DNA of 64,000 bases from a virus: the IMG/VR virus record IMGVR_UViG_3300028800_000003, positions 32,001 through 96,000 of that record. The stretch is one strand, 5' to 3'. The position numbers were made by a program, and so were the translations under genes. How positions within the stretch are numbered: position 1 is the first letter of the stretch; each line of letters opens with the position of its first letter. The notes under the pieces are model-generated. The model was given only the letters and a program-made list of their open reading frames with translations, was not told where the DNA came from and searched no databases. Below are positions 7,822-59,148 of the stretch, piece by piece.

Positions 7822-8357
7822 TTCTGAAACCTGGAACCTTCAACGTCAATGAGTACCGCAAGGCAATTCCTGTGTGGGTGAAGCTGCAAGCGTTGATCAA
7901 TTCAATCATTCAGCGCGGCGAACTGCCGCTGAATGATGGCAAGCCGCTCGATGCCCGCGATCTGCAATTCGATCACTGCCCAGCCCTGGTTGATCGGCCA
8001 TACGATACCGTGGCTGGCGATTTCATTCCACAGCAGAACGACCCCGAATTCATCGTCCCGTTGCGCAAGCGCACGCATCTGCAAAAGACAACAGGCCGCA
8101 AGGAGGATGCCGAGCGGACAGTGACGACGCGCGGCAGCGATGTCGGCGAAGCGGCGCGCACGCGGCACATTCAGGACAGCGAGACCATCCACCAGGCGAA
8201 GATGTTGCACCGCGTGGACCCGGATGCGGCACGGCGTCTGCTCGGCAGCGTGCGGCAGAAGACCCGCCTGCGGCCGAAACGCAAGATCGCCAGCCGCGGC
8301 TTCGGCAATCAACATCGTCCCATGCAATCGAGGAAGCGCAACCGTGGCCGGAGTTAG
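7818..8357 (+). CDS. HNH-like phage protein
   Basis: LQFDHCPAL...NDPEFIVPL...HLQKT...SDVGEAARTR, basic C-terminus. Confidence 0.55.
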   Translation: MILKPGTFNVNEYRKAIPVWVKLQALINSIIQRGELPLNDGKPLDARDLQFDHCPALVDRPYDTVAGDFIPQQNDPEFIVPLRKRTHLQKTTGRKEDAERTVTTRGSDVGEAARTRHIQDSETIHQAKMLHRVDPDAARRLLGSVRQKTRLRPKRKIASRGFGNQHRPMQSRKRNRGRS

Positions 8358-8580
8358 GAACAATCCATGTGTCGAGGCGATCGTTAAGACGCTGCTCGAT
8401 GCCGGCATAAGGCCCGAGGCGCCAGAGGTCACGAAGGGCTGCCACGTCAGGGTGCGCTGGCAGGCGAACGGCAACAAGCGCCAGTATCACACAGGGGCCT
8501 CGCCATCCGACTGGCGAGCCCCGAGGAAGGCGGCATCAGACGTGCGCCGCATGTTGCGCGAAGACGGCTTAGCTCTATAA
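8344..8580 (+). CDS. HicA-like small protein
   Basis: TKGCHVRVRW...TGASPSDWRA...DVRR motif. Confidence 0.55.
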   Translation: MAGVRNNPCVEAIVKTLLDAGIRPEAPEVTKGCHVRVRWQANGNKRQYHTGASPSDWRAPRKAASDVRRMLREDGLAL

Positions 8581-8583
8581 AAA

Positions 8584-8630
8584 TAACCGGTTATATCTCT
8601 TGACAACCCGCATGTATAACCGCATCTGAG
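8584..8630 (+). promoter_or_regulatory. Putative promoter/operator of the Nop-domain operon
   Basis: TTGACA at 8600; palindrome TAACCGGTTA at 8584-8593; TAACCGCA at 8617; -10 element weak. Confidence 0.5.
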
Positions 8631-8662
8631 AACCGCGGCAATAAACATCGGAGTCAGCCAAG

Positions 8663-9196
8663 ATGAGCCTCACAGAAAATACCGAGCCACGTCGTCGTCG
8701 CCAAAGCCGCCGACGTAACCCAGAGACGCTTGGGGAGTTGCTGGTTTCGCTTCATCAACAATATCCGCGAGCGACCGAGACCGAACTAAAATCCATGCTC
8801 CGCGAGAATGGCAAGGAACGTCCGCAACTGGTCGACGAAGCCTTGGATTTCTGGTCGTCGCTCAATTACCGCAAGCTGATCGTCGCTCCCAATCCTGCCG
8901 GTCAGACATCGCGACCGCAACCGCGAGAGAACATCGAGGGCAGCGCCCAGGCTGCGCGCGTCACCATCCAAACGATTTTCGATACTTTCATGATCGGCGG
9001 CAAGCCGGTCGGCGAATACACGACGCAAGAAGCCATCGGCGTCGGACGCACAAACATCCGCCATGGCTACATTCTTCTGCGCATGGCGCGCGTCGTCGCC
9101 AACCCCGATCCGAATGCCAAGCTGCGCAACATCGTGAAGCTCAACGAAGCGCAGCGCATCATCAAACAAGCGATCGAGGAATCGAATGTCGCGTAA
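8663..9196 (+). CDS. Hypothetical protein translationally coupled to the Nop-domain gene
   Basis: 177 aa, GGAG RBS, 11-nt overlap with the 9186 ORF. Confidence 0.65.
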   Translation: MSLTENTEPRRRRQSRRRNPETLGELLVSLHQQYPRATETELKSMLRENGKERPQLVDEALDFWSSLNYRKLIVAPNPAGQTSRPQPRENIEGSAQAARVTIQTIFDTFMIGGKPVGEYTTQEAIGVGRTNIRHGYILLRMARVVANPDPNAKLRNIVKLNEAQRIIKQAIEESNVA

Positions 9197-10394
9197 GCCA
9201 ACGAAATTGCGAGCGTGCGGTCACCCTGTGTCTTCCCGAAAGAGGCCAAAATCGTCGTCCCGCGCGCTCGCATCCAAAACCGCCTCCGATGACCATTTCA
9301 GGATTGCCCGAAAGGCCGACAACACCCTGTCTTCGGGGGCGGCCACCATTGCAGATGTCGATGATCATGGTTTTATTGTCGCATGCGACCAATCCCAATG
9401 TATCTCAACATCTGCATCCAATTCCGCAGACGATGATCGGTCAATCCGTGCCAATCATGGCCAGCCACAATTTATCTCGTCTGCGGACCTCAAGAAGCGC
9501 ATTGGCGTCATTCATGCGCATTGGCGCAATGCGGTGTTCGCTCGCAAGCAACGCATCCGCATCGGCAACACACTGAGTGCTTTCCTGCGAACTCAACTCG
9601 GCTGGTCGCTCGATAAGAGCGAGAAAGAACGCGAGAAGATCGCGAAACAAGCCGCAAAAATGATCGCCGATGGCGGTGGCGAATGGGCAGAATTTGTTGT
9701 CTCGACAGAGATTTCCATGGCTCCTTGGCAGGACATCGAGTCTCGCCATATCAAGGCGATGGAGAAAATAGCCATCGAATTTCCGGTCTGGTGCGATTTC
9801 GGCAAGCCGGTTCGAGGATTCGGATTGGCATCCTTTGCCAAGATTGTCGCTATGGCCGGCGATCTGTCGCAGTATCCGACGGTCGGCCACTTGCAGAAAC
9901 GTCTTGGAATATCCGTTGTTGACGGTGTCCGTCAGGGCAACCCAGGGAAAGGCGCGACCGCCGACGATTGGATTCGCCATGGCTACAAGCGAACCAACCG
10001 CGCGGAAATCTGGCAGATCGGGGCATCGTTGATAAAGGCTCAGGTCCGCGCTCAGAAGGACGCTGACGGCAAGAAATGCGGCGACAGTCTCGCCGTCGGC
10101 CGTTATGGCGCGATCTATCTGGGTCGCAAGAAACATGAACTGGCGCGGGGCCTCACCCTAAAGCACGCCGACAATCGCGCCAAGCGATACATGGAGAAGT
10201 GTCTGATTCGTGATCTATGGGCGGCATGGCGTCAAGTCATGTCGCTCGGCGCCTTGGTTGATCAGAATGCCAGTGTCGAACAGACCAGTGTTAATTTATC
10301 ACCCAAGGCGCACCCTATTACAGATTTCTATGATCATGGAGAGCGCATCCGAAAGGATCATGGATTACTGTGCGCGTCATACCCCAACGGCTAG
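9186..10394 (+). CDS. IS110/Nop-domain RNA-binding protein without RuvC (TasA-like)
   Basis: Coiled coil then VRGFGLASFAKIVAMAGDLSQYPTVGHLQKRLGI...YGAIY..RK...HADNRAKRYMEKCLIRDLWAAWR; no DEDD RuvC domain; both termini are translated array units. Confidence 0.8.
   Translation: MSRKPTKLRACGHPVSSRKRPKSSSRALASKTASDDHFRIARKADNTLSSGAATIADVDDHGFIVACDQSQCISTSASNSADDDRSIRANHGQPQFISSADLKKRIGVIHAHWRNAVFARKQRIRIGNTLSAFLRTQLGWSLDKSEKEREKIAKQAAKMIADGGGEWAEFVVSTEISMAPWQDIESRHIKAMEKIAIEFPVWCDFGKPVRGFGLASFAKIVAMAGDLSQYPTVGHLQKRLGISVVDGVRQGNPGKGATADDWIRHGYKRTNRAEIWQIGASLIKAQVRAQKDADGKKCGDSLAVGRYGAIYLGRKKHELARGLTLKHADNRAKRYMEKCLIRDLWAAWRQVMSLGALVDQNASVEQTSVNLSPKAHPITDFYDHGERIRKDHGLLCASYPNG
9208..9487 (+). repeat. 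TIGR-like stem-loop guide array, 4 units, 72-nt period
   Basis: Each unit = outer stem + YC(A/G)-N9-T(G/T)-short hairpin-CC(A/G)-N9-T(G/A/C) + outer stem; first N9 starts at 9224, 9296, 9368, 9440. Confidence 0.8.
10249..10381 (+). repeat. TIGR-like stem-loop guide array, 2 units (second degenerate)
   Basis: GCGCCTTGG.TGA-TCA-gaatgccag-TG-tcgaacaga-CCA-gtgttaatt-TA-TCA.CCAAGGCGC; next N9 starts at 10337 = 10265+72. Confidence 0.7.
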
Positions 10395-10397
10395 AGG

Positions 10398-10949
10398 TCA
10401 CGACGGCGGTAGCGCCGGTTCGCACACTCGCGAGAAGATATAGCGAAGCGAACGGACCAACGACCTTTCATCAGAATCTGGAATCGGTACTGTCACCAAA
10501 TCCTGATGACATTCCTGATGACCAAAGATGAAATCACAGACTGTGTCAGGATAGAAGCCTTTGACGACGATCCGCATTGGGCGCACTTGAAAGTCCTGCG
10601 TCAGATGGTCGAAGGCAATCGTTGATATTGGGTTGCCCGGTAATTCTCCGTGATACGGCCGCAGCCGATAGGTGCATGGCGTATTCTCGACGTGCTCAAT
10701 GAGCCAGTCGAATTTCTTCTCTGGGCACGAATGAGCATAGCAGCTTGCCACCCCGGTGACTCTTGCGCCGTCGAGCGGCTTTGCAGAGCTTGATGCAGTA
10801 AATGTGTCGAGACGACTGAGCGGCGCATAACTGCGAATGAAGACATTCGCAATCGCTTCAATTCCCGCATCTTCTGAGGGAATTGCCGGCGGCGACCAGC
10901 CGCCCAAGGTTGCGGTGAGTGAAATTATTGCCCATTGCCAGAAGCGCAT
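10398..10949 (-). CDS. Hypothetical exported protein (moron-like, opposite strand)
   Basis: N-terminal signal-peptide-like segment; several Cys. Confidence 0.55.
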   Translation of the reverse strand: MRFWQWAIISLTATLGGWSPPAIPSEDAGIEAIANVFIRSYAPLSRLDTFTASSSAKPLDGARVTGVASCYAHSCPEKKFDWLIEHVENTPCTYRLRPYHGELPGNPISTIAFDHLTQDFQVRPMRIVVKGFYPDTVCDFIFGHQECHQDLVTVPIPDSDERSLVRSLRYIFSRVCEPALPPS

Positions 10950-11071: not shown

Positions 11072-11305
11072 GGCAGTTAGTGGGGATCGACGAGGCGGGC
11101 GGCTCATTGGAGGCAGTGGCCGCCCGCCAAATCGGTTCCCGAAACGAAAACGCGCCCCAGATCGCTACGGCGGGAGAGCACTCACCGGCTCTAACTCAAA
11201 GCCCGTCGTGCGGTTTGAGACACCCAAAATTGGGCGCGTTTGGCCACCGGACATAAGTCGCCGCGGTTTTGTGGAACCGTCTCGCTTCCGGTGGCCCCCA
11301 CCAAT
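11072..11305 (+). ncRNA. Candidate structured ncRNA or leader RNA with pseudoknot
   Basis: Stems GGCGGGCGGC/GCCGCCCGCC, AAACGCGCCC/GGGCGCGTTT, GGCCACCGGA/TCCGGTGGCC, GTGGGG/CCCCAC; CGGTTCC(11133) pairs with GGAACCG(11273) in a hairpin loop. Confidence 0.55.
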
Positions 11306-36923: not shown

Positions 36924-39257
36924 TTAGTTGATGATGATGGCGTTGTTGTTGCCGACGGTATTCACGCCGGGGCTGGAGTAGCCGGACACGTTGGAAACGC
37001 CGGTGAGGTTTACGGTAGAACCGTTCTCAGACAAAACGTTGCCGTCGCCGTTGTTGGTGCTGAGCTGAACATTCGTTCCGCCGTTGACGCCGGCTGTGTC
37101 GAAGGCGGCAATACCCCAGTGTGAGTTTCCGGCGATCGTGACCGCGTTGTCCAAAAGCGCCAACTGCGAATTCTGAACGTAGAAACCGGCGTCGTCGTTG
37201 TAGGAGAATGAGCCGCCGATGATTGCGGCATTGGACCCGTTCTCGACCAGCATTCCACTGCCGCCATTATACATCGAGTAGATGTTGACAGTTCCAACGT
37301 CACCGCCAAAGCCGGCCTGCTGAACGATGATTCCGTTGTCATCATTGCTGTACGAACAAATTTCGATGTTCTGTCCGACCAGCCCCTGAACGATGAACGA
37401 TCCCCACGCGGCACCGATACCGGGACCAATGCACCCTGTCGCGCTGACGAAACCCTGGAATGCCATCAGGCCGCCGTTGGTGGCGATGCCATATCCGCCG
37501 CAGCCATGCGCAGAGACGTTGCTCAATGTGATATTTTCAAGAGCAAAGCACAGCGCAACGTATTCTTCGTTGGCGCCACGGTCTCCGACCAGCAAGATAT
37601 TATAAAGACCCCAGCCTGGTGACTGAAAATTGAGTCCGCCGCTTGCCGTGAAATCAAGTTCAGTGTCGTAACAGTTGCGCAATGCCGTCAGGTCGGCGGT
37701 ACGATCTGTTGCTTTGTTGCCGGTCGTTGAAAAGATCGAGTGGCTTGGGCTCGATTTCATGCCAGCGCCGAAGATGCCGATGCGATCGGAGTTCGGATGC
37801 GACAGAGCGATCTGCGACGATCCTGCTGAAATTTGACCGGAAGCGAGGTTCAAGCTCACGTATCCATTCGGCGTGATGCGGAACTTGCCGAGATATTCCA
37901 TTGCCACAGCAAGGCTGGAAAAGTTCGCGCCCTCACCGTACACCGAATATGAGACGCTGGAGTCGATAACAAATCCGTTGAACAACTGGAATGCGGAACC
38001 GTTGTATACCAGGAATGCGATCTGTCCGGCCGACAACATTCCGGCGGCCAGCGGCAAGCCGCTGCAATCAACGATTGGAACCGCAGCCAACGAATTTACG
38101 GCAATCGTCGAAGCACCGGTGTTGTTAGCGGCGATCTTGACCTCAACCGTAGTGCCGGCTGGCAGCGACGTGATTGCTGGCGTAAATGAAGCGACGACGG
38201 TATTGGCCGTGCCAGTGTCCTGCGCATACGGGATGTCGATCGTGTAGGTGTTGTTGTTGGTCGTTGACGAGGTAAAGCCCTCGAAGTTCTCAACCTGGAA
38301 CGCCGAGCCGTCATAGACCAGCGACACAACCATGCCGGCGTTGATGTCGCCCGAGGAAAGCTGAGCGCCGTTGGCGCGATGCACGGCGACGGTGCCGAGG
38401 TTGTTGACGTTTATCGTGGTGACATCGGTGTTGGTGTGGTTCACCTTCACCGAGAGCCGCATGCCCGGCTCGTATTGCGCCGGTGTCGGCGCAACCGTAA
38501 CAACCATGTTGTTGACGGTTCCGGTGTCGACCGCATACGTCCAGGTCTGATTCTGAACACCAGTCGGGATCAGCGGCAGCTTGCCGTTGGTGGCGAGAAA
38601 CGGCGCCAAATAGTAGGGCAAGATATTGCCGGCCGTGATCGAGGTCGCGCCGTTGGCCACCGTGATCGTGAACAGACCGGTCCAGCCCGCATCCGGCGAC
38701 GGCGCCAATTGCGTGCCGGTCGTGGCCGCGATACCGGCCTTGATCTGATAGGCGACGCCGCCATAGCGCACGGTGTTCTGTGCGGTGCCGGCATTGGCGG
38801 GGCCGGAGAAGGGATCGGATGGATCGGCCGCATCGAAATACGGCAGCACTGTCGCGCCGCCGTCCATGTCCTGATACTGGACCTCGACAAGGAAGACCTG
38901 GCTGTAACCGGTCGTGCCTGGAGGCGTGATGCCCATCGTGACCGACTGGCCGACGCCTGCCGCGGTGCCGTTGGCGACGAACTGGATGCCCTGTTTCAGA
39001 ATCGAGGTCGCAGTATTCGCCGGAAGCGAAGACCAGATCGATTGCTCCAGGTTTTCCAACTGATAGATGTTGCCGGGCGTCAGGATGATGTTGAGCGATC
39101 CCGGTACGGTCGGAGTCACCGTGAAACCGTCGACAAGCGTCGGCGTGCCCAGGATCGTTTGCGACAGCTCGGCAAGAGCCACCATCGCGTTTTGCTGGGC
39201 TTGCAGCAGGTCTGTTTCGAGCGGAGTCTGACCCGCGTAAATGGTTTTGCGATCCAT
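36924..39257 (-). CDS. Tail fibre/tailspike with C-terminal beta-helix repeats
   Basis: MDRKTIY.GQ.PLETDLL baseplate-anchoring N-terminus; YAVDTGTVN repeats; N..GI beta-helix repeats. Confidence 0.75.
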   Translation of the reverse strand: MDRKTIYAGQTPLETDLLQAQQNAMVALAELSQTILGTPTLVDGFTVTPTVPGSLNIILTPGNIYQLENLEQSIWSSLPANTATSILKQGIQFVANGTAAGVGQSVTMGITPPGTTGYSQVFLVEVQYQDMDGGATVLPYFDAADPSDPFSGPANAGTAQNTVRYGGVAYQIKAGIAATTGTQLAPSPDAGWTGLFTITVANGATSITAGNILPYYLAPFLATNGKLPLIPTGVQNQTWTYAVDTGTVNNMVVTVAPTPAQYEPGMRLSVKVNHTNTDVTTINVNNLGTVAVHRANGAQLSSGDINAGMVVSLVYDGSAFQVENFEGFTSSTTNNNTYTIDIPYAQDTGTANTVVASFTPAITSLPAGTTVEVKIAANNTGASTIAVNSLAAVPIVDCSGLPLAAGMLSAGQIAFLVYNGSAFQLFNGFVIDSSVSYSVYGEGANFSSLAVAMEYLGKFRITPNGYVSLNLASGQISAGSSQIALSHPNSDRIGIFGAGMKSSPSHSIFSTTGNKATDRTADLTALRNCYDTELDFTASGGLNFQSPGWGLYNILLVGDRGANEEYVALCFALENITLSNVSAHGCGGYGIATNGGLMAFQGFVSATGCIGPGIGAAWGSFIVQGLVGQNIEICSYSNDDNGIIVQQAGFGGDVGTVNIYSMYNGGSGMLVENGSNAAIIGGSFSYNDDAGFYVQNSQLALLDNAVTIAGNSHWGIAAFDTAGVNGGTNVQLSTNNGDGNVLSENGSTVNLTGVSNVSGYSSPGVNTVGNNNAIIIN

Positions 39258-39326
39258 CGCGTCCTCGGAAAATAAAAAAGGCGCCACGCGGCGCCGGAAA
39301 ATTCAGGCTGGAATCTGAAACTTGGA

Positions 39327-59073: not shown

Positions 59074-59148
59074 TGGCTCCGGGGGCAGGACTCGAACCTG
59101 CGACCATCCGATTAACAGTCGGACGCTCTACCACTGAGCTACCCCGAA
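59074..59148 (-). tRNA. tRNA-Asn (GTT)
   Basis: TTCGGGGTAGCTCAGTGGTAGAGCGTCCGACTGTTAATCGGATGGTCGCAGGTTCGAGTCCTGCCCCCGGAGCCA: complete cloverleaf with encoded CCA. Confidence 0.95.

Follow-up and report, generated by a model that had tools for sequence, protein, structure and literature searches.

TIGR-Tas systems, defined together with their stem-loop class by Faure et al. (Science 2025, PMC12045711), employ guides that specify an 18-bp DNA target to be bound, with one spacer for each strand. According to the part of that paper drawn on here, the TIGR units of a Peromyscus leucopus gut contig are processed singly. Xu et al. (bioRxiv 10.64898/2026.09.09.750476, September 2026) report, in the portion of their text that was available, stem-loop arrays inside tas coding sequences, intragenic guides of the Bifidobacterium longum protein BlTasA seen by small-RNA sequencing, and repression of transcription by TasA. 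The same portion leaves undecided whether processing or internal promoters give rise to intragenic guides, and its authors suggest that guide maturation may be linked to Tas translation. The placement of guides inside the tas frame is, on that account, already reported for the family, and the locus described here adds a member to it. This locus lies in a stretch of 64,000 nucleotides (hereafter the window) that corresponds to bases 32001-96000 of the 119,739-bp virus record IMGVR_UViG_3300028800_000003, a record with direct terminal repeats whose completeness is estimated as complete. There a tasA-like gene (9186-10394, plus strand; 402 codons and a TAG stop at 10392-10394) contains four hairpin units near its 5' end and two near its 3' end. 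As judged from sequence, these units probably (at roughly 0.7) form a real stem-loop TIGR array that is translated in frame within a nuclease-less, TasA-type effector of the phage. A preliminary description, made from the letters of the window, had proposed a guide array within the coding sequence of its own effector, and covariance models, profile comparison and Foldseek bear this out, identifying a genuine stem-loop TIGR array and the open reading frame (ORF) as its Tas.

The guide array and its Tas protein

The TIGRFinder grammar expects a box C (CNA), a spacer of about 9 nt and a box D (YG), twice, within a stem. The six plus-strand units of the window, U1 to U6, are laid out as stem, YCR, 9 nt, TG, a loop of 9-11 nt, CCA, 9 nt, box D2 and stem, box D2 being TG, TA, TC or GT. 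Exceptions to this layout are found at box D1, which is TT in U1 and CA in U6, and at box C2, which is CCG in U2 and TCA in U6. The near-canonical tigRNA unit is U2 (9280-9342), which consists of CCA-N9-TG, the loop CCCGAAAGG and CCG-N9-TG and scores 40.6 bits with R2, a covariance model that contains no window sequence and was built from the best 150 of 158 matches in relatives. U5 (10249-10311; TCA-N9-TG, 9-nt loop, CCA-N9-TA) reaches 26.2 bits and U4 (9423-9487; TCG-N9-TG, 10-nt loop, CCA-N9-TA) 21.7 bits. U3 (9350-9416; TCA-N9-TG, 10-nt loop, CCA-N9-TA), with one bulged U and one mismatch in its stem, scores 11.1 bits. Two units are degenerate: U1 (9208-9272), with TCA..TT and CCA..TC, an 11-nt loop, a 13-bp stem and a score of 14.7 bits, and U6 (10308-10375), which stands in register and has off-consensus boxes and a stem overlapping spacer B.

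Box C1 falls at 9221, 9293, 9365 and 9437, always exactly 72 nt apart, and in the 3' pair at 10262 and 10334, again with a spacing of 72 nt. The period of 24 codons given in the preliminary description is therefore exact, and the four 5' units are indeed stop-free in frame. All six box C1 share one codon phase, (pos-9186) mod 3 = 2, i.e., codon position 3. The peptide echo of the RNA repeat that had been pointed out (DDH, DDR, VDQ, YDH) simply comes from translating GA(T/C)GA and the YCR box in that phase. U1-U4 cover residues 8-101 of the protein and U5-U6 residues 355-397, both within predicted disordered tails; the end of U4 coincides with the beginning of helix 1 at residue 99 of the AlphaFold2 model, and the TAG stop comes after U6, so that the two 3' units (10249-10375) precede it as originally stated.

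A 72-nt period might also reflect an ordinary degenerate 24-residue protein repeat, or chance, with no RNA function. In favor of this, identity at lag 72 is weak, 41-46%, compared with at most 38% at every lag except 72 and 144, and Tandem Repeats Finder finds no repeat in the array region 9186-9490. Among direct repeats the longest measure 18-33 nt, with 78-79% identity; a CRISPR array was rejected on the blank Tandem Repeats Finder result and these short direct repeats. Given the low identity at lag 72, the repeat is a structural one and not a sequence repeat. The repeat search returned in-register hairpins at 9208-9220/9260-9272, 9350-9361/9405-9416, 9423-9433/9477-9487 and 10249-10262/10298-10311, and RNAfold places four in-register hairpins in the 5' cluster, adding 9280-9342 to those of the repeat search. 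Stems of 11-13 pairs, each of different sequence, are present in U1-U5. Folding of 9200-9495 gives -108.3 kcal/mol versus -83.1 +/- 5.0 for shuffled sequences (z -5.06, none of 200 as good); for the 3' pair z is -3.04, with 3 of 200 shuffles as good. A protein repeat or chance is contradicted by arms that differ among units and yet remain complementary, by conserved letters that are those of the RNA boxes and loop and not of peptide positions, by the predicted disorder of the peptide, and by the same grammar adjoining tas in 150 and 289 strand-specific matches in relatives. This explanation was dropped upon the hairpin and box analysis, and its probability is negligible.

Comparison with relatives points in the same direction as folding. 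Units of the window align in register with those of four relatives' loci (L002, L003, L037 and L076; such numbers denote loci of relatives throughout), sharing the consensus of stem, GGCCA, 9 nt, TGCC, short loop, GGCCA, 9 nt, TGCC and closing stem. Stem covariation amounts to 83.9% of cells paired versus 59.7% when shuffled, a difference that arises partly by construction, the units having been chosen as hairpins. On the 64-kb window, R2 retrieves U2 at E 5.9e-6, U5 at E 0.0045, U4 at E 0.035 and U1 at E 0.89. With filters off over 8600-10600, the top five matches are U2, U5, U4, U1 and U3, the next one scoring 6.5 bits, and U6 is not recovered. Elsewhere in the 119.7-kb phage genome the model search yielded no further unit at E < 0.05.

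The ORF 9186-10394 matches no Pfam family at E <= 0.01. Among PHROGs, phrog_4285, labeled 'transposase / integration and excision', matches residues 181-365 (E 1.6e-13); the 'transposase' label looks like a carry-over from IS110 and misleads where Tas proteins lack a nuclease. Among 5.8 billion proteins searched, 27 relatives turned up besides the product itself, none with a name, and single-protein scans of metagenome contigs and of genome contigs returned no relatives. In the alignment of the product with its relatives (A1), conservation spans from about residue 97 to about residue 350, and both termini are variable. Compared with the PDB, the A1 profile hits TasR (9mty_A, E 4.9e-17) and TasH chains (E 1.1e-3), 9MTY being listed as the TasR entry in the part of Faure et al. 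(PMC12045711) drawn on. From A1, AlphaFold2 predicts a confident helical core at residues 99-367, with the predicted local distance difference test (pLDDT) mostly >90 over 99-360; it opens with the confident and conserved helix 1 (residues 99-137). Values of pLDDT <50 at residues 9-78, 82-88 and 372-399 mark the predicted disordered tails.

This folded core (9480-10286, plus strand) is predicted by AlphaFold2, A1 and Foldseek to combine a coiled coil with a Nop / IS110-C-terminal-like RNA-binding domain. TasR and TasH chains occupy ranks 1-10 of the Foldseek comparison with the PDB at probability 1.00, TasR being on top (E 1.6e-6); the IS110-family recombinases ISCro4 and IS621 follow at ranks 12-15, and then Prp31 and Nop proteins. 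IS110 structures align solely over the C-terminal domain, with E 0.0095 and weaker. An IS110-family transposase was rejected as an identity, as the N-terminal DEDD/RuvC-like domain is missing, the N-terminus having no Pfam match and being disordered. No HNH or RuvC nuclease domain was detected with Pfam, and only residues 99-367 are folded in the AlphaFold2 model. Since there is no nuclease domain, the product is assigned, from sequence and model, to the nuclease-less TasA type rather than to TasH or TasR.

Start codon and frame in the window and in relatives

The tas frame runs without a stop from 9138 to 10392. At its head, a Shine-Dalgarno motif GAGGA (9176-9180) and a 5-nt spacer precede ATG 9186 (whole element 9176-9188, plus strand), and the start overlaps by 11 nt the last codons of an upstream partner gene (8663-9196, plus strand, 177 aa in the ORF list), whose protein has no match in Pfam and PHROG scans. 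The next in-frame ATG, as the preliminary description had it, lies deep in the conserved core, at residue 159. In-frame TTG 9207 and GTG 9228 are both within U1; between GTG 9228 and GTG 9534 (residue 117) there is no in-frame ATG, GTG or TTG, and GTG 9534 itself sits within the conserved, confidently folded helix 99-137.

The loci compared with the window, 80 viral and 80 metagenomic ones encoding relatives, support ATG 9186 as the start. Homologues of the C-terminal ~80 aa of the partner stand directly 5' of tas in 8 loci (L082, L092, L027, L090, L011, L022, L086 and L087), of which 7 are distinct, and there the tas ATG is found 5 nt ahead of the partner stop, behind GGAG, which is the arrangement seen at 9176-9196. 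Of all 142 distinct loci, window included, 30 have a Shine-Dalgarno-ATG-N5-stop junction in the tas frame, whereas about one would be estimated by chance, and the surroundings of these junctions are visibly similar. The partner gene looks, from these sequences, like a conserved and translationally coupled companion of this Tas clade.

What varies is the distance from the ATG to the core, whose boundaries in relatives were projected from tblastn matches and carry an uncertainty of several codons. It is -15 to +18 nt in the 15 junction loci that carry no unit, 75-81 nt in L096, L028 and L092, which have one unit each and a leader M-x-R-K like that of the window, 213 nt in L083, with a tail peptide similar to that of the window, 288 nt in the window itself, and 330-684 nt in L037, L106, L051 and L076, with the maximum of 684 nt in L076. 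The model match of the first unit begins 16-22 nt past the ATG in the window, L083, L092, L096 and L028. Because a conserved junction is followed by no, one or several units before the core, ATG 9186 is, as sequence comparison indicates, the homologous tas start, behind which the units have been inserted in frame. The claim that translation begins at this ATG, behind GAGGA and overlapping the upstream gene, holds accordingly well against the relatives, and the conserved junction and the lack of a later start favor read-through of the units by ribosomes, a composition unlike that of coding sequence speaking against it.

A simple hairpin scan found tandem hairpin arrays adjoining tas in many relatives' loci; model R1 gave 216 matches in viral loci, 214 on the tas strand, a further search in relatives placed 158 of 158 matches on the plus (tas) strand, and R2 placed 289 of 289 matches in metagenome loci on the tas strand, with strong covariation. 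Units for the frame counts were taken from the best 150 of the 158 and the best 150 of the 289 model matches, 282 of the 300 being left in 109 loci after removal of identical sequences; phase counts are raw, kin loci and tandem copies each being counted. Units within the tas open frame are distributed over phases 0/1/2 as 2/73/78, and those outside it as 38/58/33. Phase 0 is intrinsically more stop-prone, with a stop in 44% of units versus 17% and 28% in the other two, but intrinsic stops explain only part of the pattern and are insufficient to account for 2 of 153 units in phase 0.

Of the upstream units that are not in the tas frame, 81 in all, most sit in another long open frame: 52 occupy a stop-free stretch of at least 150 codons when read in unit phase 2, against 6 in phase 0 and 20 in phase 1. 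Where upstream units are in frame (52 loci), 19 loci have no admissible start after at least one whole unit. The spacing of neighboring units is a multiple of 3 in 23 of 27 pairs in the tas frame and in 20 of 31 pairs outside it, which does not discriminate between the two (Fisher p = 0.13).

A few features of individual loci were observed along the way. Within the tas frame, phase 2 prevails among 5'-side and internal units and phase 1 among 3'-side units; the 5'-side units that sit in the partner gene are likewise mostly in phase 2. Upstream units lie within the partner-gene open frame at L027 2335-2614, L082 171-455, L092 1862-1990 and L022 2494-2566, where they are N-terminal to the conserved part of the partner and are read in the phase that the units of the window have in tas. 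At L088 3213-3499, L017 3760-4155, L096 1060-1458 and L002 1757-2023, 4-5 units downstream are passed before the tas frame closes. A stop 8-14 nt past a unit (the last unit detected), in the linker, is seen in L088, L096, L002, L086 and L090-L092.

Weighing translation and guide function

A number of observations weigh against the proposed reading, beginning with those that concern translation of the units. Embedding is not obligatory across the family, as 129 of the 282 distinct units are outside the tas open frame. The earlier statement that gain or loss of units must preserve the frame has support in that the start-to-core distance in relatives shifts by in-frame, unit-bearing blocks. In the window, the frame pos mod 3 = 1 is likewise stop-free over the whole 5' array, the third frame being shut by TGA within the GATGA motif of U2-U4, so the openness of the tas frame is uninformative alone. 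For the 3' units to precede the stop, just ~50 stop-free codons are needed, which is not improbable by chance. The difference in GC content between third and second codon positions (GC3-GC2) is -0.03 in the N-terminal tail versus 0.21 +/- 0.15 in phage coding windows (5th percentile -0.09), and -0.06 and -0.15 in the off-frames; codon composition in the array region looks RNA-driven, unlike ordinary coding sequence. Finally, an admissible start codon follows the units in 33 of the 52 loci with upstream in-frame units.

Two open frames, a composition that is not coding-like, these 33 loci and a partner ORF ending at 9196, just ahead of U1 at 9208, all speak for an untranslated 5' leader, in which case Tas would start after the array at a weak or non-canonical codon, ATC 9474, ATT 9501 or 9510, or GTG 9534, and the frame of ATG 9186 would be incidental. 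A later start had been named from the outset as the alternative, and it fares differently in the two settings: relatives often offer one, yet the window has no canonical in-frame start between GTG 9228 and GTG 9534. Initiation at GTG 9534, moreover, would lack a purine-rich Shine-Dalgarno motif and cost 18 residues of the conserved helix 1, and relatives that lack an array in this position begin tas at a junction homologous to that of 9176-9196. An untranslated leader is therefore judged unlikely, and translation from ATG 9186 through the array is preferred.

Other adverse points concern the units as guides. A closing pair joins the opening base of box C1 to the final base of box D2, and the combination of TCA or TCG at box C1 with TA at box D2 turns this pair from C-G into U-A in U3 (9365/9402), U4 (9437/9474) and U5 (10262/10298). 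Among the 300 model matches of relatives the pair is C-G in 291 and U-G in 7, and U-A never. Half of the six units deviate from the family consensus, with box deviations in U1, U3 and U6, U6 undetected by R2 and U3 at its low score. In the phage genome, searches in either geometry with gaps of 0-2 found no target with <=2 mismatches, and the five 3-mismatch sites, two of which overlap the array itself, are at the level estimated for chance (~3).

Such deviations, along with the lack of another array or a self-target in the genome, would be expected of decaying relics overprinted by the ORF, which would yield no working guides and leave the tails as mere disordered extensions. However, the change from C-G to U-A is compensatory, U1-U5 retain their 11-13-pair stems despite differing in sequence, with the folding score of the 5' cluster given above, and U2, U5 and U4 pass a model built free of the window. 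A Tas with an intact core but no guides elsewhere in the genome would, besides, be functionless. Decay into relics is considered very unlikely, and a real, translated guide array remains the preferred explanation.

Several searches in the rest of the window returned features of other kinds. Both guide models match 38641-38711 (plus strand) weakly, one with 16.8 bits at E 0.19 and the other with 19.8 bits at E 0.083. This well-formed CCA-N9-TG ... CCA-N9-CG hairpin is antisense within a 787-aa ORF (36924-39287, minus strand) and is probably a chance match rather than a guide unit. Another candidate, 11087-11135 (minus strand), was rejected as a mere hairpin whose match skips 25 model positions. 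An Rfam scan returned tRNA only and nothing for the guide array, the tRNA gene carried by the phage being located at 59077-59148 (minus strand; RF00005, 71.8 bits). Neither a sigma-70-like promoter nor a plus-strand terminator was detected in 8300-10800. Contigs from four DNA runs, when compared with the stretch, gave pieces that were identical or non-fitting and zero variants, so that they afford no population test of frame-preserving insertions and deletions.

Possible coupling of guides and translation, and known systems

Under the preferred reading, translation would start at ATG 9186, coupled to the partner gene, and the ribosome would pass four hairpin units, producing a disordered N-terminal tail of 98 residues, before it reaches the folded Tas core (99-367) and ends after two more units that would yield a disordered C-terminal tail. 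The tail peptides would then be by-products of constraints on the RNA, namely its stems, its loop and box C/D. If it behaves like the TasA proteins already characterised, Tas and processed two-spacer guides would bind DNA and repress transcription with no cutting.

If the tas transcript doubles as guide precursor, as the preliminary description proposed along with negative autoregulation through destruction of the message, excision of U1-U4 would part the ribosome-binding site and start codon from the core, and initiation could be impeded by Tas sitting on U1, the beginning of which is 19-22 nt past the ATG. Protein and guide would be kept in balance by either event. That guide release or binding is coupled in this way to Tas translation on one transcript is suggested tentatively from the sequence layout, and is possible rather than probable. 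It is tempting to go further and hypothesize that the guide units of this clade are built for reading by ribosomes in a fixed codon phase, and that translation and Tas binding together make up a self-titrating circuit, in which a transcript would be either translated or cut and loaded Tas would stop its own synthesis and that of the partner. This broader proposal draws on the rarity of phase 0 within the tas frame, on the prevalence of phase 2 on the 5' side and of phase 1 on the 3' side, and on the change of unit number by in-frame blocks behind the conserved start; it is doubtful. Should guide release and translation compete on one transcript, an RNA-guided repressor would carry its own simple dosage control, and, if true, this would be worth knowing when compact TIGR-Tas systems are moved into other cells.

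The proposed mechanism resembles what is known from mobile elements. TnpB (IS200/IS605) reportedly processes its own mRNA into omega-RNA. The omega-RNA guide overlaps the coding end of tnpB. As proposed for the phage, a guide cut from the effector mRNA would likewise cost the message; unlike TnpB, which belongs to an unrelated protein family and has one guide at the 3' end, the phage gene has hairpin arrays at both ends. IS110 recombinases with their bridge RNA (IS621, 8WT6/8WT9; ISCro4) share with the phage Tas a C-terminal RNA-binding domain of the same fold, whereas the phage protein is without the DEDD/RuvC N-terminal domain and goes with a guide array instead of one bridge RNA.

Within the family, the TasA of the Peromyscus leucopus gut contig, as presented in the available part of Faure et al. 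(PMC12045711), agrees with the phage system in the lack of a nuclease, tandem hairpins, dual spacers and box C/D. Its array, by the same source, is arranged as three sub-arrays beside the gene and outside the reading frame, while the phage array is inside tas. As a discovery the phage case is limited, the arrangement being known in the family and the case resting on sequence and comparison; it is nonetheless a clean natural instance of one DNA stretch that probably serves as both guide RNA and protein-coding sequence.

The closest counterparts are the intragenic tigRNAs of Xu et al. (10.64898/2026.09.09.750476), which, so far as the available portion of the preprint describes them, likewise combine a nuclease-less Tas with units at the 5' and 3' ends of tas, an intact frame and disordered protein parts. 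Compared with that portion, the phage locus differs in several respects. Its units are confined to the two tails, whereas the intragenic segment of BlTasA is in the wedge loop; a single codon phase and an exact 72-nt period are common to all six units; and three of them have a U-A closing pair replacing C-G. The comparative argument set out above, in which a conserved start junction is followed by no, one or several units and which argues for real entry of the ribosome into the array, is absent from the available part of that work and is what the phage locus and its relatives contribute to it.

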